Assembly (NCBI GenBank): GCA_021613535.1
Contig: CP075493.1
Span: 10,168,001 to 10,232,000 of the forward strand
DNA: 64,000 nt
Source: Adineta vaga
Lineage: Eukaryota; Animalia; Rotifera
Reading direction: 5' to 3'
The notes under the pieces are model-generated. The model was not told the DNA's origin, searched no databases, and saw nothing but the letters and a program-made list of their open reading frames with translations. Positions 854 to 26,969 of the stretch are shown one piece after another (the stretch's first letter is position 1; every line of letters begins with the position of its first letter). The position numbers were made by a program, and so were the translations under genes.

Positions 854-3800
854 ATGTCTCCATTAAGTGGCAAGACATTTGTACTTGAGCTTGGTCGAGA
901 AATTCGTTTTAAAGCTAAACAAGAACTAATTAACTATTTACGTGAACAAAATGCGCAGATTTCATATATATTAACTGCTAGCGTAGGTTTTTCTCTCTCG
1001 ACATATCTGAATCATTATCGATTGAAACTTATTTTTACTCTAGACGGATTATGTTTTGGTTTCGAATGATATTGATACATATAAAACTCGTCGAGCAAAA
1101 CAACTCGGCATACCATTGGTTAATGTTGATTATATTCATGAATGTCGTAAATCAGAAGTTGGAAAAGAACCATCTGATATTAAACGATTTATTGTGACAT
1201 CAGCAGAAGATAAAGAAAACTTCTCAAAAACTGGTACTATACCAGTTTCAGGTTAATATACGAAGGTTTCTTTAGAAAACTTATATTAATACTTCTTCTT
1301 CTTTTGCATAGGAGGAGGAAGTTCGTCAGGTAGTGTAATAAAACCTGTTAAATATGATGTATCAAAAATCAAAATATGGAATTCTGATGATGTGGAATTA
1401 CCATGTTTCGATGAAATTACACATGCTGAAATTGGCAAATGGGCAATCTTCAAAGTAAAAATCTTGAGATAATCAATTGACTCTATTCATTTTCTTGCCG
1501 TTTTCAATAGGAAACAAACGATCATTCAGATATTCATTTTGCGCTTGAATTACAAATCATTTCCGAAGAATATTATCATCAACAAACAAATAATGATTAT
1601 CAATTTCGATTTCGTTATGAAAAACAAACAATTATCAGTTCGAAAGGTAAAACTTCATTAATTCAATATGCCTTCAGTCATGATATTAATGAATTACATC
1701 AATTATTTGCATCGTACTATTATCGTATTGCAACAATGCCAAGAATAACTCGAATTCGAGAATTATTACCCGATAAATTAGGTTCCAAATTATTATTACG
1801 TGTAAGTTACTTTTCTTTCTTTTGCCATAGAAAAATATATTCTTCAATTTTAGTCATTATTTCTTCATCGAATTGATACACAAATGCTCGATGATAATGT
1901 TTGTCAATTGATTGAATCACTTTGGATTGAATCGATTGGAGATTTAAATAAGATTCTTTCTGTTCAACCTGAATCGATTGCATTGAAAACAGTATGACAA
2001 TAGAAAAACAAATGTATTTGAATGTTTATTGTTTTTTTTTCTCAAATATTCTTTTAGATTATCGAGGCTGAAGCTGCTTTACTTGAAATCAAATCTGGTG
2101 GTGAATCAGCATCGGAAGCAGAAACTCGTTTCTATTCACTGATTCCTCATCAATATTCATATCTTATCGATCTTATAACAAATCGACGTGCCTTAATAGA
2201 TAAAATTGATTTATGTCAGGTATATCTTCTTTGCTTGTTGATCATTTCATTGGCTAAATTTTCAAAATTTAGATGTTACGTGATATGCTTACGATCAATG
2301 AATTAACGAATTGGAATATTAAAGCATCAATTGAAGCAAAATATCGAGCATTAAAATGTCATATTGAAAGTATCGATAGAGATAGCCATGAATACTCGAC
2401 CATTAATAATATGATTCATTCATCAACAGATTCGTACGTATTTTTGAATGATTAGAACTCTTTTGAAAAGTATTTGAGATTCTTATAGGAATGAAAAAGT
2501 CATTGTTCATCACATCTATAGTGTTGCAAAACAAATAGATGCATTGAATTTTCGCTCAACACTTTTTAATCAGAAACAACTTTTTCATGGATCGAAATAT
2601 AATAATTTTCTTGGTATTCTCTCACGGTAAATCAATTTAATAAAAGTTCTTTCCAAACATTCATATTTTTTTTCTTGTTATTTAGTGGTTTAATGCTACC
2701 AAAACTAGTTGTAGATGATCTAGGAGTGGCACGTACTGATTTTGGATGTTTGGGATATGGAATTTACTTTTCGGATTCTGTTTCAACATCTTTAAAATAT
2801 ACAACATCAAGTACAACTTGCCCTGGTCGACGCCTATTATGTATATCTCAAGTAGCATTAGGAGAATCAGCAAAATATTATTCATATGCAACGAATTTAA
2901 CTCAACCACCAGAAAATTGCCATAGTACACATGGAGTAAAGAAGACCAATGAAAATAATTCGAAATTTTTCGTAAGAAATTTCCTAGTTTTTATTTCGAT
3001 AAATTGAAATTATTTAGGATGATGAATATGTAATCTATAATCTTGATCAACAACGTTTACTCTACATTGTTGAAGTTTCATGGCAACCACATGATGTTAT
3101 TGATCAACCATTGAAACTATTACCAATTATTCGTGATCATTCAACAAAACAGTTAACGAGTTCGAAAAACGAAAGTAATTGCAAAATTTTACAATTCACT
3201 CTTCATTAATATAAATCTTTAACTGCATTTTTAGTGGATATACCATCATCTATCGAAGATGAAGTAATTCAAGTAGCAGAACAGGATTATGGTTTAGTTT
3301 GTCCATCATCAGGTCAATTAGTGCCATTGAAAGCATTTCATATTCGCGCTCAACTTGTTGATGTAACTGGTGAAGTATGTTTAATTACATTGCTCCTTCT
3401 TTCAATCAATATTATCTATAAATATTTGTTAGGTAGTACTTTATCAAGTATATCATAATACAAGTTCAGTTCCAATCGAAGCTAAATATGTGTTTCCATT
3501 GGAAGAAAATTGTTCTGTGTGTGGTTTCGAAGCTCATATAAACAATAAAGTTATTAAGGGTGTTGTAAAAGAAAAAGAACAAGCGAAACGTGAATATCGT
3601 GAAGCAATCGAAAAAGGTCATGGTGCATATTTAATGCATCAAGAACAACCTGAAGTTTTCAGTGTATCTGTCGGTAATTTACCAGCAAATTGTGAAGTGA
3701 TTATCAAGATTACTTATGTTGCAGAATTATCAATTGAAAATAATGATATTATCTTTCGTTTTCCAGCAAAAGTAGCTTCATGGCAATCGAAACAAGCTTT

Positions 3801-6800
3801 AGAAGCAAAAGATCAAACAATTCTTCCATCGATTAATCTTGAACAAGATAATTCGTCAATGAAATCCGTTGAATTTAGTTTGAAAACATCTATTCGTATG
3901 CCATACGAAATTAGTAAATTATTCTCTCCGACGCATCGTCTTCGACGGAAAGTAACCGATTGTTTAGCCATGATTGAACTCGTTGATAATGTTCTATTAG
4001 AAAAAGATTTTATTCTTTCTATAACATTAAAAAGTATAAATTTACCACGAATGTTAAATGAAACATATGTTGTCTCGGATGAAAACAATAATATCGAATT
4101 AAATGATGAACAATCTCAAGCATGTATGTTAACATTTTATCCGAAATTTGAAATGACAAATAATATCAATGAATTTGTGGAAGTCGTTTTTATTATTGAT
4201 GTATCAAATTCAATGGATGGTAATCATGTTCAACAAGCAAAACAATTAGCACATTTATTTTTAACAAATATGAACAATAATGATGGAAATATTTATTTTA
4301 ATATTGTTACCTTTGGATCAGGTAAGATCGGATGAAGTGAGTTTGATTAATTTTCTTTTCGTTCTTTTAGATAATGATGAATGTTTTCCTATCTCATCAC
4401 CAAATACAAAAGAAAATATTGATAAAGCAAAGCATTTCATTTTGGTTTGTATTATCCTATCAGTTCTTTTGTTCTTGAAGAAAATCTTCTCTTTTGTAAA
4501 TTATAGCATTCACTTGATCATCGTGGTAATACTGATCTTTTCTCTGTTCTTCGTCAATATTCTCTCCTTCCATCTCCATGTAAACTTGGTCGACAATTTA
4601 TTCTTCTTTCTGATGGACATATCAATGATTTGAATTCAATTATAACTTTACTAGAAAATCAACCATCTATGGCACATGATCGATTCTTTACATGTTCAAT
4701 TAGTGATACATCAAATAAACATCAATTAAAACAATTAACTAATGGAGCACATGGTGGCGGTTTAGCAACTGTATTTGATTCAAACTATCGTTCAAAATGG
4801 AAATCGAAAGTTCTTCTCATTCTTGAACATATTCGTCAACCATGTGTAACAAATATATCAATTGATTGGCATGGAAATCTTGATAATCAACAAGTTAAAT
4901 TTACCAATCAAGCACCAAAAATGATTCGATCCTTATTTAATGGTATGCGTTTAACTGTCTATCGATTTATTCAAAATTGTCATAAAGCAACATTGACAGC
5001 AATGATTAATGATCAAGAATTTGTTACAACTGTATTCAGTAATAAAATGACAGAAACACGAGGAACAATTTTACATTGTTTAACGGCACGTGCAATTATT
5101 CATGATTATGAAAATGGTATATTGCATGTAGATGAAAGTGAAAATGAACTGATGAAAAAACAATATAAACAAGATTTAATTGACTTGAGTATAAAATATT
5201 CTGTTGTAAGTTCATTTACAAGCTTTGTGGCTATTGAAGAACGTGATGGACAAGCACTTGAGCCAGGTAGAGTTTTAATTTCAGATTAAAATAAGATTGA
5301 AAAACTTTTCTTTCTTTTTCTTTTCTTTTCTTTTCTTTTCTTTATTAGGTGTTCGCTTACTGGATGTGATGCTTGAACATGATATTGATTTATTGCCATA
5401 TATTGGTTGGGATGGTGATCGATCACAGATTCAAATAATTAAAGAAAAATTACTGGATGCAAAACATTTATTTGATAGTGCATCGATATCAAATAAGATT
5501 CAACTAACAACTGAATATGAAAAACTTTGTCAAAATATATCTTATCGTTCTGGTGGCGATGCAAAATATGATTTAATGTTGGCAATTATTGAAACGTACA
5601 GAACGATGCTAAAAGAAAATAATAAAGCATTAGAATTAGAAGAAAAAATGCAGCTTGGTAAAATTGAATTGTTTTTTATTATGTATTTAGTCGAATTGAT
5701 TTTGTATTCATAGAACTATTGACTGAAATAACAAATGCAACGGCTGATGAAAGAAAGATATTGGAAAAACGTTTGGAAGAAGTTAACGCACGTATTAATA
5801 CAGCTGAATCGTTAGTTAAATTTGTAATAGGAGACAAATTTTAGAAATTTTGATTCTTGTTTTAGGGAAAGCCAAGACGAAGGTGCAAGTAGCGAGGACA
5901 TCGATAGTTCTCAAGATTCCTGCGACGAAGAAGTAAACTGTAGTAATATTCTTCTTCGGACTGTAAGTTATTTATCAAAGTATTGAAAAAACTTTCTGAA
6001 ACTAAATAACTGTCATTTCTTTCTATGAAAAGTGTTCAATGGGTGGTGACGATTCATGTATGGATAGTGCATTTGCAAATATTATTCTAAATACTTTGTG
6101 TTGTTGTATATTTTATAGATTCAATGGTGGATTGCGATATAGACTATCCTCTTGATTTTGAAGTTTCCTCTACAGCTTCTAAGCCAGCTATGAATCCATA
6201 TAAATCAAAAGGCACAGCCATTGCTTTAAGTTCGTCTCATGATGAATCTGAAGGATCTGATGATATGGGTTTTGGCTTATTTGATGACGGCGTACCTGCA
6301 TCATATTCACCAGTTGTATCGAACAAATTGCGCTCATCAATGATAGACGATAAGAAAGATACAGAAAAAATTGCGGCGGCTGCAAAGATACCTCAAATGC
6401 TCGAAACTATGAGAGAATACGAAGATGATGAAGACGAAGCGGACGATTTTGGTTTTGATTTGTTTGGCGATTATTCTTCGTCATCACCAGCTGCTACAGT
6501 GAATCTTATAGAAAAAGAGGAACATAGTAAACGAAGCACGAGTTTAGCGAAAAGACAATCACCACCAAACGTACAAGTAACTCCCATCAGAGATTTACTT
6601 GAAGAAACTAAAGATCTTCTTAAATCTAATTTAAATAAGATTTTAGATAGAAGTAAGTATACTTTGAAACACATTTTTCTTTATTTATATTTGTAAATTT
6701 ATTATTATATTCAATAATAGGTGACATGCTTTCTTCTCTGTCCATAAACGATGAACGAGCCAGTCCAAAGAAACGCAAGGAAGTATCAAAAAAGGAATCT

Positions 6801-9505
6801 AAACCAGTACCTTCTGATTCAGCTGTTTTTTCAAACTTGTCACATACATCCCATACGTCTCAAATACCAACAACACAAAGCTTCAGTTTTTCTAATCTAC
6901 ATTCACAACCACAACAGCAGCAGCAGCAACATCTGAAACAGCAAGAATCTTCGATAGATGGTGATAAGTGCCTCATAACGCCGGCATTGTTTGATTTTAC
7001 AGGCAGCAGTCTTTCGGCGAACAGTGCAGATTTCATATCTGCAACGGCATCCGCACCCTCATTTTCATTTTCGAACACTGCGTTCAACAACTATTATCAG
7101 AGTGATGTATTGCCAGACTTTGGTATTTCAACTCTGCCTCACCCTAGCATGCCATCCTTTACGTTTGGTGCGCCTCAATTTAACAACAATACGTGCAGTG
7201 ATCCATTCTCTACATCGGCTGGCACTCTTTCGGCAAGTACAAATATGGGCTTTAATACTGGACCACCACCACCACCTCCTCCTATGGCTGCTGGATTTTT
7301 TGGTAGCACACCACCTAGTTCCAATTCTTTGTTTCAACCAACCACTGCTAGTGGCATGTCATACAATCCTCTGTTGCCAGATGCGATGCTTCAACAAGTA
7401 CTGCTACCAGCACAACCTCCTCCTCCTATGGCTGCTGGTTTCTTTGGCAGTACTATGTCGCCAGGTGCGGTTTTTCAACAACTACCACTACCACCACCAC
7501 CACCACCTCCTCCTCCTATGGCTGCTGGTTTCTTTGGCAGCACTACATCTAGTTCCAATTCTTTTTATCAACCAACTATTGCTACTGGCATGTCATATAG
7601 TCATATGCCACCAGGTGCTATGCCTCAACAAGTACTACTACCACCACCACCACCACCACCTCTTCCTGCTCCTCCACGACTTCAATCAATAAAAACAATA
7701 GCAAATGAATCGGGTTTCAAAATGTCATTAGCTGATGACGAGGAATCATCTCCGATGTATTCTGCGTTACAGCATAAACAACGCTCGAGCATGGTGTCAC
7801 GAGATAGAGGTCGTGGAGTAGTTTTCGGAGGAAGATGCGCAACTGATGGAGCTGAAGTATTAAGTGGGAAAAAATCAGAGATCATTAAAGAAATATCTGT
7901 AAATGATTGTGCTCGATATTGTGACGTATGTGTAGACAAAATAACATTTAAATCTTATACAAAATACTTTTCTTATTGTAGACACGTTCCGACGAAGCCT
8001 CTAATGCACCAGTAAAATCTGCAACATCAGACTATACAGAAGACTACAATATATTTAGTAAAAAGAAATCGAGTTCCAAACGGTACGAATTTTAGAAAGA
8101 CAAAATACCATTCATGTTCACTAAAATGGAGCTATTAAATTTATTTTAGTGCACCCGAGAAGAAACCAGTGACCAAATATGTTGACGATTGTCTGTACGA
8201 TCTTTTACTACTTGATGTTACACCACTTGGTTTAGGTATTGAAGATGTGAATGGTGAAATGTGTACAATTATTGAACGCAATCGTACAATTCCAACGAAA
8301 TCAAACGTTTATTCTATATTTACCAATGCTTATGCTTATCAGACAACAGCTACTATACGTATTTTTCATGGTCAACATAAATTAACAAAATATAATGTTA
8401 GTAAAATACTTACACAATTGAAATCGAATTGAAATAATTTTATTTTGTTTTAGATATTTCTTGGTGAACTTATTCTTAAAGATTTAACACCAAATTTTGC
8501 TTCACAAACATTACAAATATCAATTGTTATGGATGTTGCTAATAGTTTCCTACAAGTCAATGCGGAAGAACCACGATCAGGAGCTAAAGCTATGATTAAA
8601 ATTAGTGCATCAGATTGTAAGAATCCATTAACCAATATGTATTCAAAATAAATCGTATGTATTTAAATTTATTATAGATTCACTTAGTGCAACCGAAATT
8701 GAACGACATATTACATATGTCGAAAGTGATCCTAACTATAGAGCTGTAGATTTTAACGATGCACAAAAAAATAATCGTCAATACAAGGTCGGTACCAGCT
8801 TTCAGAAAACAAATTCATTCTAAATCTCGATTATTTTAGTTGAAAGGTGATACAGAAAGTACGGCCATTCGTTTTACAGGTAATATAGAAAGTTCGAACG
8901 ATGTTTTCAATTTTGATCGACCAAAAACTATTCAATTAATTTCAACAACTCTAAATGAAATTAAAAAAATACAATTACCAAATGGATCGTTCGATATCAA
9001 TGAAGATTTTACTAAATTATTTTCAATTCCGATGAAAAATTTTGATGAACTTAAAAAATACTTATGTTCACAAGGTTTTAATTCATTTGGTAAGAATGAA
9101 TAAAAAATGATAAAATAATCTAGAAGAAGAATCTTTTCTTTTAGCATTAAATGTACAACAAGATATTATACATCTCATTGCAACAGGTATTGTTCTTCTA
9201 CAATTGTTATTACAAGTACCCGTATCGGATAGAAAAGGATATTTAGTTCCATTCGATAGTGAACAATTAAAAGTAAGAAACGAAATTCTGTTGTTTGTTT
9301 TTTCTTTCGATTGATTGATTTGATTTCTTTTCAGACGATTTTTCATTGTCATTTACCGAAAGTTTTGATAGAAAATGTTAATAAAGCAATTGATTTTTAT
9401 GAACAAAAACGTTTACGCTGTGGAATATATTGTGAACAATTAGAATTGAAATATTCATCATGGGAAAAATTGATTCAATACGGAATTTTTCAAATCGAAA
9501 ATTGA
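854..9505 (+). CDS. PARP4: PARP4 / vault poly(ADP-ribose) polymerase-like protein, ~26 introns, roughly 2,400 aa (estimate): BRCT - WGR-like - PARP regulatory - PARP catalytic - VIT - vWA - insert region - Hsp70 SBD - C-terminal MVP-interaction-like domain
   Basis: Manual splicing gives an N-terminal BRCT (TDYVLVS..KTRRAKQLGIPLVNVDYIHEC). Catalytic motifs LFHGS (His 2586), GIYF..SLKY and DDEYVIY (Glu 3024) form an intact H-Y-E triad. VIT: IEAKYVFPLEENCSVCGFEA..VGNLP. vWA MIDAS: IIDVSNSM. Then SFTSFVAIEER and DIDLLPYIGW. The C-terminus QLPNGSF..LIATGIVL..YCEQLELKYSSW matches the PARP4 C-terminal domain. Stop TGA at 9503-9505. Confidence 0.92.
7263..7660 (+). repeat. Internal coding tandem repeat in PARP4 (3 units beginning P(n)MAAGFFGS; units 1 and 3 full, unit 2 truncated)
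   Basis: cctcctcctatggctgctgg(a/t)tt(t/c)tttgg recurs near 7275, 7419 and 7509. Units 1 and 3 continue similarly through ctagttccaattcttt..caaccaac..ggcatgtcata..caacaagtact. Confidence 0.9.
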
Positions 9506-10161: not shown

Positions 10162-10704
10162 ATGCAAGCTACCGCCGGTATCCAAAAACTTAAAGGTACT
10201 TGGGAATACGTTGATGGTGAACATTTCGATGATTACATGAAAGAAATCGGTGTCGGTTTCGCTCTTCGTCAATCAGCTAAATTAATTAAACCAAAATTGA
10301 TCATTCAAGAAAATGGAGGTAAATGGTCACTCAAAAGTGAATCAACCCTTAAGACAGCTTCATATGAATTTACACCTGGCACTGAATTCGATGAAACTCG
10401 TCTCGATGGTGAAAACTGTAAAGTTAGTTCAACTAAAATCTTGGAAAAACTTATCTTTTTCATCTGTCTGTTTATTTAGTCCATAATCAAATTTGAAAAT
10501 GATAAATGGGTACACACAATGCGCGATAAAAATGGTAAAGAATCGACAGTTACACGATGGGTTGATGATCTAGGTCAACATCAAGTTGTAAGAGAAAAAA
10601 AACGATTTTTTTTCCTTCTGAAAGTTGAACTTTATTTTTTCCTCTTATAGGACATGAAAGCTGGCAGTGTTACAGCTCGCCGTTGGTACAAACGTGTTGA
10701 TTAA
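10162..10704 (+). CDS. Fatty acid-binding protein (intracellular lipid-binding family), 3 coding exons
   Basis: GTWEYVDGEHFDDYMKEIGVG..KP..EFTPGTEFDETRLDG..VTRWV..ARRWYKRVD. Introns 10423-10479 and 10588-10650. TATA box at 10021 and a probable 5'UTR intron 10098-10154. Confidence 0.93.
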
Positions 10705-21838: not shown

Positions 21839-24800
21839 TTACGTGGATGAATCTTGAGTACTAATTACATTTAACAAAGTAAGTGGTAAGTCATGTAAAG
21901 TAAGTTTATTATCAATTACAACATCGATAGTACCTGTTAAAGATAAAGGAATCTTGCCAGCTAATAGAGGTGTTAGAAGAGACACCATTGTTGCTAATTT
22001 TGCTGTAATTTTAACATCAATGTACTCTGTTAAAACTTCGGCAAAAGGACCAATATCGATACGCTGATTATCAGTAACAGTGCCAACTTGTTTATCTTCG
22101 TTTAATTCAGCACCATAATCTGCTCTGACATTAATTCGTGTCACAGCTAATGTTGAACTAAATGGGTTTTTCAATACAAGACGTGTCGAAAGTGTTTTGA
22201 CAGTACCAAGTGGAATACCAAGTATTTGTAAAGCGCTTAGTTTTTTCAAAAGAACTTCTCGAACAAGTGTTCTGTCACCATAAAGGCCAGGAGCTGTTGC
22301 CTGAATCTGTAAACCAGCAATAGCTGTCGATAATAGAGGAACATTTGTTCCTACTGAATTATTTGGTAATATTCCATGTAATTCTACATCATTATCTATT
22401 CCACATATCATACGAGAAATAAATTGTCGAGCTACATCAGTATTTTTAGGTGTGATAGTAAATGTTCCTGTTGCATTTAATATTGTACTATTCCCTTTAG
22501 GATCAAGATAAAATGGATCGATAATAACTAAACCAAGAGAAGTTCCACTAGTTTTATCACGTAAGTCAAGCGAAAGACGACCACCATCAAGAATATTAAC
22601 AACCGATGGATTAGTCATTTTTGTTGTTATATGAAGTGCTAGTTCATTGGACGAGATTGCTCCTGTTAGATCAATCTCATCAATATGTAAAAGTCCATTA
22701 GCAAATCGATCATAACCCGTCAAAATAAGAGTATCACTTACTGGAATATCCGTTAAAGTAATATTACCAATTCGAACTTCTGCTAATGCTGTAGCTAAAC
22801 CATTAATTGTTACTGATACACTTTTTTTCAAAACAAGATCAGCAGCAAATGCTTGAAATGATGTTCTATCTAATACAATAAGTTCTTGTTTAAAAAAATT
22901 CATCGAAAGCTCATTAGTTGTTTGATTATGTTGAACAGGCAAATCATGAAGTATCATTTGACCCATATTAGGTCCATTATTAAAACGCATCATATAATCA
23001 ATACTTGTTGTTAAGGCTTTGAATGTCATGTGAACATTTGATGGTAATTCAAATAAAACAGATAATTCACCTGTCACATAAACTCTACTAACGTTTGCTC
23101 GATCAAATTCAATACCAAAATCTAATACTTCAACTCGACGAATTAATTGTGTTTGTATGCCATCAAGATCTGCTTCTATAGAAAGACCACTGATCGTTAA
23201 ATCCATACCAGTAGGATTTTCACTTGTAGATAAATCATGAAACAAGGTTACTGATTGTATTTGATTATTGAGATATGCAGAAAAAAAATTACCAACAACA
23301 GGTAAATCACTTTCTTCTCTTGGAACAAGTAGACTAAAACGAAGAATAATTATAATCAAATAAAAATATTCATTGGTAATTATACAAACCCGTAAAGCAT
23401 CATATTATTACTGCCTGGTGTCAGAGCTAGGATATCAATTGGTACATGACCAATAACTGTTCCAGTATCAGTATCAGCCATTAAAAGTTCAAATTTTTCC
23501 AGTCGAACATCAGTCACACCAGAATTTCCAATCGTTACATTGATAGAAATTCGAAGAGCATTATTAGTTTCTCCGTCGACTGTGATGGCATGCACACGCA
23601 CATCACTAAGACCTTCAAGACCAACTAACGAAACATCATTCGAAATAGAAATACCATTACTATTCAAAGCACCAAGAGCGAATGAACCAGTAATAGATGC
23701 GATGCCAACAACACGAAAATGAATCTGATCAGTTTTATTTGCATTGATGAAATTTTGAGCAAACTTCTCATAAGCTTTTCCCGTACCACTAATTAATAAA
23801 TATCTGTCATTGAATGCTGATTCAAATGTAATACTATCTATTTGTTTTACTGCTGCTTCAGAAACATTTAACATGCCAACAGGATTATTATCATAATAAA
23901 GAAAAACACCCATGTCCATTGTTTGAATTTGAAGTGGAGATTGTTGGCCAAGAGGTGAATTGATTTTAAAAGTAATCGATGCTGATAATTTGACTTTCTT
24001 TTCAGTTGCTGATGGAATAAGTGACATCGAATTGAATATCAATGAAGGAATTAATTGCTCATCAAAAGTTGGCATTGGAACAATCAATGAGAGACCTTTC
24101 ATACCATTGGCAAGTAAAGAATACGAAGTAGCATTTGGTCCAGCTACTGCACCGACTCGACTCGTTTTACCTATGAGAAAATTTTCGATAACATCAGAAA
24201 GAGCTTTATATGCTTCAGGAGATTTTGATTGTAATTCACCAGAAAACGGTACCGCATTTGCACCAGAATGTAAAGTTATATTACTATCAATCGAATTAAC
24301 ATAACCAATCGTTTGATCATTATAACGTAAAGAAAAGTGTAATGCACCTATACGAAAAGAAAATGAGGTTAGAGAAACAAATTAGCGAAAGATTTCTTTT
24401 ACCAAGATCAATGTTAAATATTGATGGATTACCAATTTCGATAATAATATCCACAAAAATATGTTTTGCAGTCGATCGACGAAGATCAACTGTTTTAATA
24501 CTTACATTTTGAAGACCATTTAAAGCATTGAGTGTTACTTTTTTATTAAATGGAATATTCGAATAAGTAGGCATTACGGTCGATATCGGTTGAATCGATG
24601 CTTTTGCTGTTAAATGCCATACAACACTGGATTCAAATATAAGCGAACGAGTGAAATTATTAAAAGCTCCAAGATTAGATACAACAAATGGCGAATCAAT
24701 GGGAATGATAGTCGGTTGATCACCATCTCCAGTAATCTTGATCGATTGTTCATTTCTTACAACTCCAACATCATCAACATTGATGATAAGTGGTGAAAGA

Positions 24801-25282
24801 ATTGTTGCTGGAATTGATCCAGTACGAGATAATTCTAATTCAGCTCGTAGACGAAAACTATCATTTTTAATATCTTCAATATTAATCGATCGAAAAGATA
24901 ATTCAGTTTTTTCAATCGTTGAACGAACAATCGCTGGAACAATAACATAGAGTACAATTATAATGCTAAGAAGAATTATAAGTAAAGCAATAGCAATACA
25001 TAAAAGAATAAATAATTTTCGACGCATTTGAAAACCTTCAAAACGACCACACATTGTACAAAGTGTTACTTTTTTCGATGATGATTTTATCGGTCTATCC
25101 AGCCAATCTATTTCGTCGTCTTCATTAGATGATGATACTAATTCTTGTTTGTCATTAGATGTCTTCAAATTAGTTTTTACATAATCCTCGGCAAAGTCTC
25201 CAGTAAAATCACCAGCATTGCTACTAGATGTTTTAATGTAAGCTACAGACTGATCTGAAGAATCAGATTTTTTTTTACCCAT
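21839..25282 (-). CDS. Single-pass type II membrane protein with repeated DUF3712/LEA-2-like beta domains (fungal Tag1-like), 1110 aa
   Basis: Three exons (introns 24348-24402 and 23334-23389) give 3333 coding nt in frame. Basic RRK then a TM helix, VPAIVRSTIEKTELSF, and repeated NPS..I.LG / F..F / V.L.G..G units typical of DUF3712 proteins. Confidence 0.75.
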
Positions 25283-26969
25283 TGATAAATTTATATCTGA
25301 AACGAAAGAAATAGTAGAGAATATTTTCATTAATTAAGCTCTAAATCCAGAAATTGTTTATCGTATGAAATGTATAGTTTTATAAAAGCCGACAAAGTGT
25401 AAAAGAGCAATCTCTTTTCCTCATAATAATATTTAAAATTGTTTTTATTTTATACGCAGTTTTACAGTTATCTGTTTTAGTTTCTCGTCAGTTCGTTTTC
25501 AATCTGCTTCCTAAAGAATCTGCGAATATTGATAACTTTGTTTTTTTTGCCTTGTCTTTATCAACTGTAGATAAAGAATAGATGAATTTCATTGATGAAG
25601 ATGTCGTTACATTTTGAAAAATATTTTAAATGTAAGTGTAGTATTGATATTCGTTTGTTCGTTCGTACTTATATTTAAAGTTTGCGGACTTATATTTCAG
25701 GTATCAACAGAGCACGCCGTAAGTTTTCATTGGCTCCTCTAAATATATTTACATGAATATATACAACAGATTTTTCTTAGACCATCAATCAGATGACATA
25801 GAAATCGAGTAAACCGATAAGGAATACAAAAATGCTTTTAATCAATCGCCAAAAATAATACTTTAATCTCTATATTTGTATTTTCATCACTTGTAAAGAT
25901 ATACAGGATAAAATGATCACTCCTGAATTATTTTCATTATGTTTCAATCGAAAAAGGTCATACTATCTTCTCAGTAGGATCATTCGATTCCCAGATAGAA
26001 TATCTAACGAAATATCATATATCTAAGCTTGTTTTCTTTCAAACGTAATAAATCTATTAATAATGTCATCTGGTAGCATGATATACATTCCATCGAGTAA
26101 TAAGTTATGAAAATCATGCTAGATTAACGAATGCATCTGGAGATTATGTATATCAAAAAATGGGTGACATATTATGTTGATCTCATCAGAATTAAAAAGC
26201 ATCAGTCATTTTATTAAAAATGTTCGATGATTACAAGATGCGTACTTATTATTCATTCCTGTATATCATCATTTTCTTTCCCGGTTTTGCAGTATAGAAA
26301 TATTTTTCTCGATATTTTCGAAGAATATATTGGACATCATGTTCACAATACGTCGAATAATTAAACCTCAATACTAATCGATGCTTCCTTTTTTATGTAT
26401 ACAAATGTATGCATGCATGTTTGCATAGAGTTTTTCAGTGCACGTTCATCAGCTAAAGACCAAAATGAATAAGAACTATCAGTTTTGTACACATCTCTCA
26501 TGATAGCTTACCACCTAGCGTATGTCGATGTACGAGTTGATATTCTTTCTCACTAATCTGCGTTTTATCTCGTTCTTTGGAGTGTATCTGCTTATTATTA
26601 TTATGTTTTTTCACGTGTTTTTGATAAGCCACACCCATATAGTGCCATATATTTCACTCAATAGACATCTCATGTAAATAAATTATATTTTTCGACAAAT
26701 TTTTTAGTTGCATTTTTCTGAATTTTGTTTTTTGGTTGCACTTGAAATTTAAACGTCCTCTCAACATCGTTGACTATTTCATATTTTTTTCTTTCACAAC
26801 TACGACTACTTATTTATAGTAACAGCAAAAGAAAGAAGCGGAACGGCAAGAAAAGAAAAGCAACACACTCCAAATAAACATATACACTCTAAGCACATGA
26901 TAGTTATATAACGCAGCATAACAAAATAAATTCATAAGCATTAGTGCAAAGTTATTTTATTAAAATAAT

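Follow-up and report, generated by a model that had tools for sequence, protein, structure and literature searches.

An Hsp70 linker and substrate-binding domain fused into a bdelloid rotifer PARP4, a possible integrated bait

What PARP4 and vaults do is a long-standing question, to which a gene of the bdelloid rotifer Adineta vaga adds another: what is a piece of the chaperone Hsp70 doing inside a PARP4 protein? The initial annotation of a 64 kb stretch of the A. vaga genome (hereafter the window) had recognized the Hsp70 interdomain linker and substrate-binding domain (SBD) in three exons, fused into PARP4 and standing without an ATPase domain (NBD).

The gene that carries these exons is modelled on the forward strand with 27 exons, whose boundaries were set by spliced contigs and which join into one open frame of 2370 residues (Table 1). 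All 26 introns are GT..AG and 46–82 nt long. Introns in the window are short and AT-rich. The modelled protein is that of A. vaga I4U23_003265 (P0148), which it matches at 99.7% over residues 1–1586 and 97% over residues 1712–2370; the NCBI model P0148 skips part of exon 20. Its domains run in the order BRCT, catalytic (CAT), VIT, vWA, low-complexity region, Hsp70 piece and MVP-ID; the name of the last and the homology of the PARP4 centre to ITIH follow PMC10450202. The MVP-ID was assigned from the paralogue P0032, which matches human PARP4 1574–1703 (E 0.0013), from precomputed PF26156 on bdelloid relatives and from a custom profile (E 2e-37). Thus, the features of clade 5 PARP4 are all present, namely an N-terminal BRCT domain, a PARP catalytic domain with H-Y-E, VIT and vWA domains and a C-terminal MVP-ID, and the gene is a PARP4 (clade 5) member, not an Hsp70 chaperone. 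Human PARP4, or vault PARP (PDB 11jf/9bw6 chain), has the same order of BRCT, CAT, VIT, vWA, disordered region and MVP-ID and aligns over residues 212–1259 (E 5e-192), with the H-Y-E and metal-site motifs kept. The differences from human PARP4 are that the rotifer disordered region holds the folded Hsp70 piece and P-stalk-like motifs, and that bdelloids have several paralogues, some with calmodulin. The protein has no signal peptide, the BRCT domain starting at residue 2. ITIH proper, a family of secreted proteins, was ruled out by that BRCT domain together with the PARP domain. ADP-ribosyltransferase activity and vault association are predicted from the PARP4 domains only; MVP genes are present in A. 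vaga (PMC10809525).

Table 1. Positions of the features discussed in the text, numbered within the window.
Feature	Position	Strand	Remarks
PARP4 gene, A. vaga I4U23_003265 locus	854..9505	+	27 exons, 2370 residues; spliced contigs
BRCT domain, exons 1–2	857..1150, end approximate	+	Pfam BRCT on P0148 2–77
PARP catalytic domain	2384..3086	+	H444, Y484 and E555 in the places of the H-Y-E triad
VIT domain	3327..3717	+	
vWA domain	4180..4755	+	D907-x-S909-x-S911 metal-site motif, intact
Helical segment after the ITIH-like core	5408..5793	+	Weakly like a 14-3-3 half, tentative
First copy of an acidic motif resembling the ribosomal P-stalk C-terminus	6241..6285	+	Sequence
Second, more diverged P-stalk-like motif	6424..6471	+	
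Exon 20, largest exon	6721..7925	+	Pro/Ser/Gln-rich low-complexity region
Hsp70 interdomain linker	8199..8219	+	Equivalent to DnaK 388–394
SBD-beta, first half, exon 22	8220..8396	+	Carries loop 3,4, remodelled and invariant
SBD-beta, second half, exon 23	8454..8616	+	Most alleles have 3 nt more behind 8536
Ser2139	8577–8579	+	Hsc70 T495 equivalent
Phase-1 intron	8617..8677	+	Shares its codon position with an intron found in canonical Hsc70 genes and algal BiP-type genes
Hsp70 helix A, exon 24	8678..8727	+	Subsequent Hsp70 lid helices absent
MVP-interacting domain, exons 25–27	8951..9502	+	

The Hsp70 piece comprises residues 2032–2168. The peptides first quoted for it were found in place in three exons, which are exons 22–24 of the PARP4 gene and are split by the introns 8397–8453 and 8617–8677 (GT..AG). 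Frame, splicing and profile matches confirm the proposed fusion of linker, SBD-beta and helix A into PARP4: exon 22 alone matches Pfam HSP70 (E 2e-12), and the spliced piece is 35% identical to a cytosolic Hsp70 SBD over 140 columns (E 3e-18). The ATPase domain is indeed missing, both from the model and from the 64 kb window, in which two of two NBD queries drew a blank with tblastn. What had been said of the lid was garbled; helix A is kept, whereas the presence of the lid did not hold up, the one tblastn query for it being blank in the 64 kb window.

That these exons are spliced to the rest of the gene is borne out by contigs from four runs of three studies, which directly show at least 13 of the 26 modelled joints; the RNA status of the sequencing runs is presumed, none being on record as RNA. 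The joint 8082>8150 into the Hsp70 exon occurs in all four runs, and the exon 20–21 joint 7925>7982 has matching loose ends in all four. Two further runs repeat joints around exons 19–24, and run X11, an unspliced one, reads through the introns with zero joints. An independent Hsp70 pseudogene or transcript had been set out beforehand as the refutation of the fusion; the contigs speak against it, as they join the Hsp70 exons to upstream exons. Exon 20 itself, with 8–34% identity to other bdelloid PARP4s, holds three poly-Pro-MAAGFFGS-type repeats at about 7263–7535, and none of the runs, spliced or unspliced, yields a contig across its repeat at 7448–7521. Hence no single molecule spans the gene, and continuity in exon 20 is supported by the open frame and by full-length models in other species. 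Three nucleotides behind 8536 are present in eight of eight runs and lacking in the window, which reflects either an assembly slip or a rare allele; the usual protein therefore keeps the Asp of the D-x-D-A-N turn.

The piece is 56–74% identical to that of seven other bdelloid PARP4s, against 7–47% in the flanks, and in four distant ones of these seven its identity exceeds that of the MVP-ID; bdelloid pieces are 40–46% identical to canonical Hsp70. In DnaK numbering, checked against structural superposition, the cytosolic Hsp70 residue is at least 90% fixed among 35 bdelloid inserts at 35 of 149 positions, including the linker, R414, N415, F426, Q433, I438, D479 and N481. A further 23 of the 149 are fixed at non-cytosolic residues in the same inserts (T403D, the whole of loop 3,4, V436A, R445H, D450Y), and the lid latch R467 is lost. 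Within the linker of these 35, L390, L391, D393 and V394 are at least 90% kept; within the pocket, F426 and Q433 are kept in 100% and I438 in 97%, V436 is Ala in 91%, T403 has become Asp and loop 3,4 is replaced. All 41 of 41 inserts have Ser or Thr as the T495-equivalent, although the two residues just upstream of it are variable; among 12 Ser/Thr positions, only one other is equally kept. Judged by its residues, the piece is conserved yet remodelled, with a new invariant pocket loop and the lid latch lost. It shares with the SBD-beta of Hsc70, BiP and DnaK (PDB 1ckr, 3dpq) the linker, the eight-strand sandwich, helix A and F426, Q433 and I438; it differs from these Hsp70s in having neither NBD nor lid, in the loss of R467, in T403D and V436A, in the replacement of loop 3,4 and loop 5,6 and in two small insertions. 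A fold model with bdelloid rows only in its alignment was weak (mean pLDDT 57), and Foldseek still matched it to SBDs. With canonical rows added, pLDDT blocks were 61–94 over residues 21–160, and the model superposed on the DnaK SBD with Z 16.4 and an rmsd of 1.9–2.5 Å over 134–145 residues, a match that is partly built in since the alignment held canonical SBDs.

In a search with exon 22, proteins of Adineta and Rotaria rank first, and a Didymodactylos PARP4 also carries the piece. A VIT-vWA search gave, among the best 120 of 541 matches (isoforms included, which inflates the counts), 48 bdelloid sequences; 20 of them reach the MVP-ID, and 19 of these 20 have the piece ahead of it, the exception being P0133. 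The same Hsp70 cut (Pfam about 378–528) recurs in oysters, P0174, P0333 and P0377. Oyster PARP4s bear the piece in the matching position, some 200 residues short of the end, all nine of nine matches being Ostreidae; P0174, with a piece at the same place, groups with an annelid (97, quick tree); P0333 is a PARP4 fragment with the piece and groups beside the bdelloids; and P0377 is a VIT-vWA protein without PARP. The piece is absent from 21 of 28 other non-fish sequences that reach the MVP-ID and from all 18 fish sequences (both among the best 120 of 541). The ESM Atlas gave no usable match for P0333 or for P0005 195–543.

These data bear on an explanation that is now very improbable and largely refuted, namely that an Hsp70 fragment sits as a neutral passenger in a tolerant linker, or that a separate gene was merged by prediction. 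Many NCBI models of the family are split in the low-complexity region (the short P0003–P0030 rows), as a merging artefact would have it, and the unbridged stretch at 7448–7521 points the same way. Against it stand the single open frame through exon 20 with spliced joints on either side, the 19 of 20 bdelloid sequences (best 120 of 541) with the piece among those that reach the MVP-ID, its occurrence in Didymodactylos, Adineta and Rotaria, the 58 of 149 positions that are at least 90% fixed and the PARP4 MVP-ID that comes after the piece.

The donor was probably a eukaryotic, cytosolic Hsc70-type gene. The phylogeny proposed in the initial annotation gave a divided answer: free trees grouped the bdelloid inserts in a single clade (98/96) that lies among eukaryotic rows, both cytosolic and ER, whereas an AU test did not reject a position beside bacterial DnaK (p 0.68, with 14 rows left out of the tree). 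Nor did it reject 16 PARP4 inserts as one clade (p 0.54). With 146 columns on a long branch, the trees do not decide the donor. A bdelloid-plus-oyster branch (97/81) joins long branches. P0270, P0347 and P0358, tried as BiP, fell with other groups in the trees. A eukaryotic donor is favoured by an extra residue that the inserts have before L507 and DnaK lacks, by the cytosolic T448 and K449, which are 100% kept in the inserts, and by a shared intron. The least diverged inserts retain the Hsc70-type end of strand 8, and the P0333 insert is 60% identical to a cytosolic Hsp70. The shared intron is intron 23 (8617–8677), which splits Tyr2152 in phase 1 at the codon of a canonical Hsp70-gene intron. 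Its site was chosen from what we take to be the structure of the human HSPA8 gene, and the intron test was therefore aimed. Among 36 loci with the pattern, seven are Hsp70 genes, five of which have a spliced continuation (three Hsc70-type, two algal BiP-type); the other 29 are not Hsp70 genes and the scan selected for the intron, so that it shows existence, not frequency. The other SBD intron, 8397–8453, has no counterpart in the loci mapped. DNA-level capture from an intron-bearing eukaryotic Hsp70 gene seems the best reading, with BiP also possible as the donor.

The Hsp70 piece is one of several kinds that have entered the same variable slot, the region between the ITIH-like core and the MVP-ID. 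Among the best 120 of 541 matches, at least one captured piece is present in 38 of 54 non-fish, non-bdelloid PARP4 sequences and in none of 18 from fish. These 54 sequences hold a 14-3-3 half (19), an actin N-terminus (15), a P-stalk motif (11), ubiquitin (7), Hsp70 (7), Pol II heptads (5), calmodulin (2) and synaptobrevin (VAMP; 1), as found with profiles seeded from the inserts and confirmed by Pfam on 21 proteins; bdelloid PARP4 paralogues add a near-intact calmodulin. Several pieces look too short for the job of their donor: the actin piece covers Pfam positions 2–74 of 410 and the 14-3-3 piece 125–223 of 223. The protein of the window perhaps carries a worn 14-3-3 half at 5408..5793, where hhalign gives 67% (E 5e-5) with an alignment that includes shared flank, against 0.1–0.3% for five control profiles; HMMs for 14-3-3, actin and ubiquitin find no match in this protein. 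For its P-stalk-like motif at 6241..6285, Pfam Ribosomal_60s matches the orthologues P0155 and P0149 below the curated cut-off. In vertebrates, the slot region corresponds to the largest exon of PARP4, a fast-evolving exon for which we know of no ligand. This exon is under recurrent positive selection (PMC4038475).

What, then, is the piece for? The explanation that we put foremost, and to which we give an even chance, is that it is an integrated bait: foreign enzymes that target Hsp70 would be lured onto PARP4. With no NBD to cover them, the linker and the loop bearing the T495-equivalent serine would stay exposed permanently. A putative pathogen enzyme (protease, kinase or AMP-transferase) would then bind or cleave the piece, and the neighbouring ITIH4-like VIT-vWA core would, putatively, keep hold of this attacker; the PARP domain would either ADP-ribosylate it or send a signal, or else the MVP-ID would carry it into vaults. 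The captured hub proteins would be toxin targets or cofactors. The arrangement resembles that of plant NLRs with integrated decoys, in that a host target has been copied into the variable slot of a protein with a putative role in defence, where the copy is free to diverge. The decoy-like features here are a host-protein copy, a lineage-variable slot and selection, whereas the carrier is a PARP with an ITIH-like core rather than an NLR. The bait is favoured by the loss of the chaperone-cycle parts (NBD, lid, R467 latch) with the linker kept, and by the selection under which the piece stands (56–74% identity against 7–47% in the flanks). Since the slot takes many unrelated housekeeping pieces, several of them too short to work, a decoy is favoured over a general holdase. 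Thus, of the two roles originally offered, slot context favours the decoy; the holdase for unfolded clients is disfavoured, yet the fold and three pocket residues are kept.

Published work on the separate parts is consistent with such a bait. Hsc70 T495 is phosphorylated by a bacterial kinase and the analogous site of BiP is AMPylated (PMC13215673), and the Hsp70 linker is solvent-exposed when the domains are uncoupled (PMC4608358). Subtilase is described as cleaving the ER chaperone BiP (PMC4608358); the link to subtilase cytotoxin that had been drawn for the linker survives as an analogy only, for a protein that has no signal peptide and a piece that is more probably Hsc70-derived. ITIH4 serves as bait and traps proteases through its vWA metal site after cleavage in a proline-rich region (Pihl et al., 2021; PMC7793589). 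As in PARP4, its VIT-vWA core with the metal site precedes a susceptible region rich in proline, and a C-terminal domain comes last, whereas ITIH4 is a plasma protein without a PARP domain and its bait is unstructured; trapping has been shown for ITIH4, PARP4 may be likened to it by architecture, and PARP4 is unmentioned in the accessible text of PMC7793589.

Several points weaken the bait explanation. If the piece were purely a mimic, it should stay close to what it copies, in the way the calmodulin insert stays close to canonical calmodulin, and the piece has 23 fixed non-cytosolic positions. In the bdelloid fungal-infection study PMC11258130, a PARP4 row is absent from 12 of 16 supplements, and PARP, vault and Hsp70 are absent from the main text. 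The Ser or Thr at 493 may be needed for a beta-turn; host enzymes modify the T495 site too; and the captured proteins are also simply the hubs with the highest conservation, as would suit the recruiting of host partners. This last reading can be made explicit: the NBD-facing surface of the piece might dock in trans on Hsc70, J-proteins or host modifying enzymes and so tie PARP4 to the chaperone network, with the other slot pieces recruiting host partners of their own. We consider this distinctly unlikely. Among the 35 inserts, the linker is kept without an NBD, as are R414, N415 and N481 (100%), D479 (97%) and L454 (94%), which we take to face the NBD in Hsp70, and as a recruiting surface they would make sense; several of these are, however, turn residues needed for the fold. 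Host enzymes phosphorylate Hsp70 T495 after DNA damage (PMC13215673), and for Perina et al. (2014; PMC4245714) the appended 14-3-3, actin and ubiquitin domains of PARPs are links to host pathways. The swapping of pieces lineage by lineage, in contrast, is more easily squared with an arms race than with one fixed host partner.

An ATP-independent binding module is likewise unlikely in our view, if deserving of weight: the lidless sandwich would bind hydrophobic peptides with altered specificity and deliver its clients, whether unfolded proteins or a single specific partner, either to the PARP domain or, by way of the neighbouring MVP-ID, into vaults. The predicted SBD-beta fold (Z 16.4 to the DnaK SBD) speaks for it, with the caution that canonical SBDs in the alignment partly build the match in. 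F426, Q433 and I438 are kept, V436A would widen rather than block the pocket, and the invariance of loop 3,4 is new. BiP can engage peptides even without its lid (PMC4608358), and A. vaga MVP and PARP genes (unspecified PARPs) rise after desiccation or radiation (PMC10809525). Such a module would nevertheless leave the non-folding slot pieces (actin N-terminus, P-stalk motif, heptads) unexplained, and the piece is lacking in P0133 and in 21 of 28 other non-fish MVP-ID sequences (best 120 of 541).

Parts of this picture are already known. The 14-3-3, actin and ubiquitin-related domains on clade 5 PARPs of amoebae, Capsaspora, lancelet and sea urchin were described in 2014 (Perina et al., 2014; PMC4245714), where the appendages are treated as links to signalling and the cytoskeleton rather than bait; section 3.1.2 does not touch on their fragmentary nature, and Hsp70 occurs nowhere in the main text. 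The Pfam HSP70 label is likewise present in databases. A literature search, whose coverage left most subscription papers outside, returned no description of an Hsp70 piece in PARP4 or of PARP4 as a decoy, and the accessible text of PMC10539598 and PMC2964712 has 'bait' and 'decoy' in method senses only.

Tentatively, the bait explanation may be widened to the whole protein. PARP4 might be an animal intracellular bait-and-trap sensor with a swappable decoy array, copied from hub proteins that pathogens target or borrow. The array (Hsp70, actin, 14-3-3, ubiquitin, calmodulin, P-stalk, VAMP, Pol II tail) would, in this somewhat doubtful scheme, be coupled to the vault, to a trap of the ITIH4 kind and to an ADP-ribosyltransferase. 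Within such a sensor, the Hsp70 piece could be an old spiralian decoy retuned by bdelloids, a suggestion that we make with reserve. Each hub-protein piece in the slot of an invertebrate PARP4 is a testable prediction of the purpose of that region. The Hsp70 piece is the most tractable, as a folded domain of 140 residues that bdelloids have conserved, from an animal kept in culture whose natural pathogens are known. Even if it serves as a binding module, it would be a natural ATPase-free and lid-free Hsp70 binding module, with a new pocket loop, beside a vault-targeting domain. If PARP4 is such a sensor, this would give a function to vaults and PARP4 and extend the integrated-decoy principle to animals.

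The Hsp70 piece of the window's PARP4, which comprises the linker, SBD-beta and helix A, differs by 3 nt from the sequencing runs matched to it: three nucleotides just after window position 8536 are absent from the window and from the NCBI model (P0148), but are present in all eight runs. The missing triplet corresponds to one Asp in a conserved turn, and its lack represents either an assembly slip or a rare allele.

The same linker–SBD–helix A piece forms the C-terminal end of a metagenome VIT-vWA protein that lacks a PARP domain (P0377/P0381). The least diverged Hsp70 piece is that of P0333, a PARP4 fragment in which ubiquitin, an actin N-terminus, a P-stalk-like motif and the Hsp70 piece follow one another in a row. 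A JGI protein (P0338) carries a long unrelated N-terminal part fused to an Hsp70 SBD and lid, with the NBD absent. The Rotaria PARP4 model P0133 extends to the MVP-ID and contains no Hsp70 piece, which reflects either loss or skipped exons.

Other segments of the window's PARP4 may also be borrowed (see table). The conserved helical segment may be a worn half of a 14-3-3 protein. The P-stalk-like motifs have counterparts in the PARP4s of other bdelloids, oyster, lancelet and brittle star.

Features in the window's PARP4 and its neighbourhood
Feature	Window position	Strand	Remark
Conserved helical segment	5408-5793	+	hhalign 67%
Acidic P-stalk-like motif	6241-6285	+	within PARP4
Acidic P-stalk-like motif	6424-6471	+	within PARP4
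Fatty-acid-binding-protein-like gene	10200-10704		directly downstream of PARP4
Large open frames, almost without introns	21842-25333	-	membrane-anchor-like stretch

Downstream, the A. ricciae model P0149, in which a lipocalin domain is merged onto PARP4, points to the same gene order in that species combined with an annotation merge. The minus-strand open frames differ in intron content from their intron-rich neighbours, and are possibly a foreign-type gene.

The variable region of other PARP4s holds further pieces. Near-intact calmodulin occurs there in eight bdelloid paralogues (P0022, P0023, P0031, P0032, P0124, P0127, P0136 and P0137), and calmodulin was also found in the PARP4s of Pinctada and Nucella. 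PARP4s of the eastern oyster and a brittle star (P0235, P0236 and P0176) carry a synaptobrevin SNARE-motif piece. RNA polymerase II-type heptad repeats lie in the variable region in Didymodactylos, a crinoid and a snail (P0383, around residues 1420-1440; P0165 and P0233). The PARP4 P0212 contains a Gly/Lys/Arg stretch around residues 985-1010, which we take, judging by eye, to resemble the histone H4 tail.
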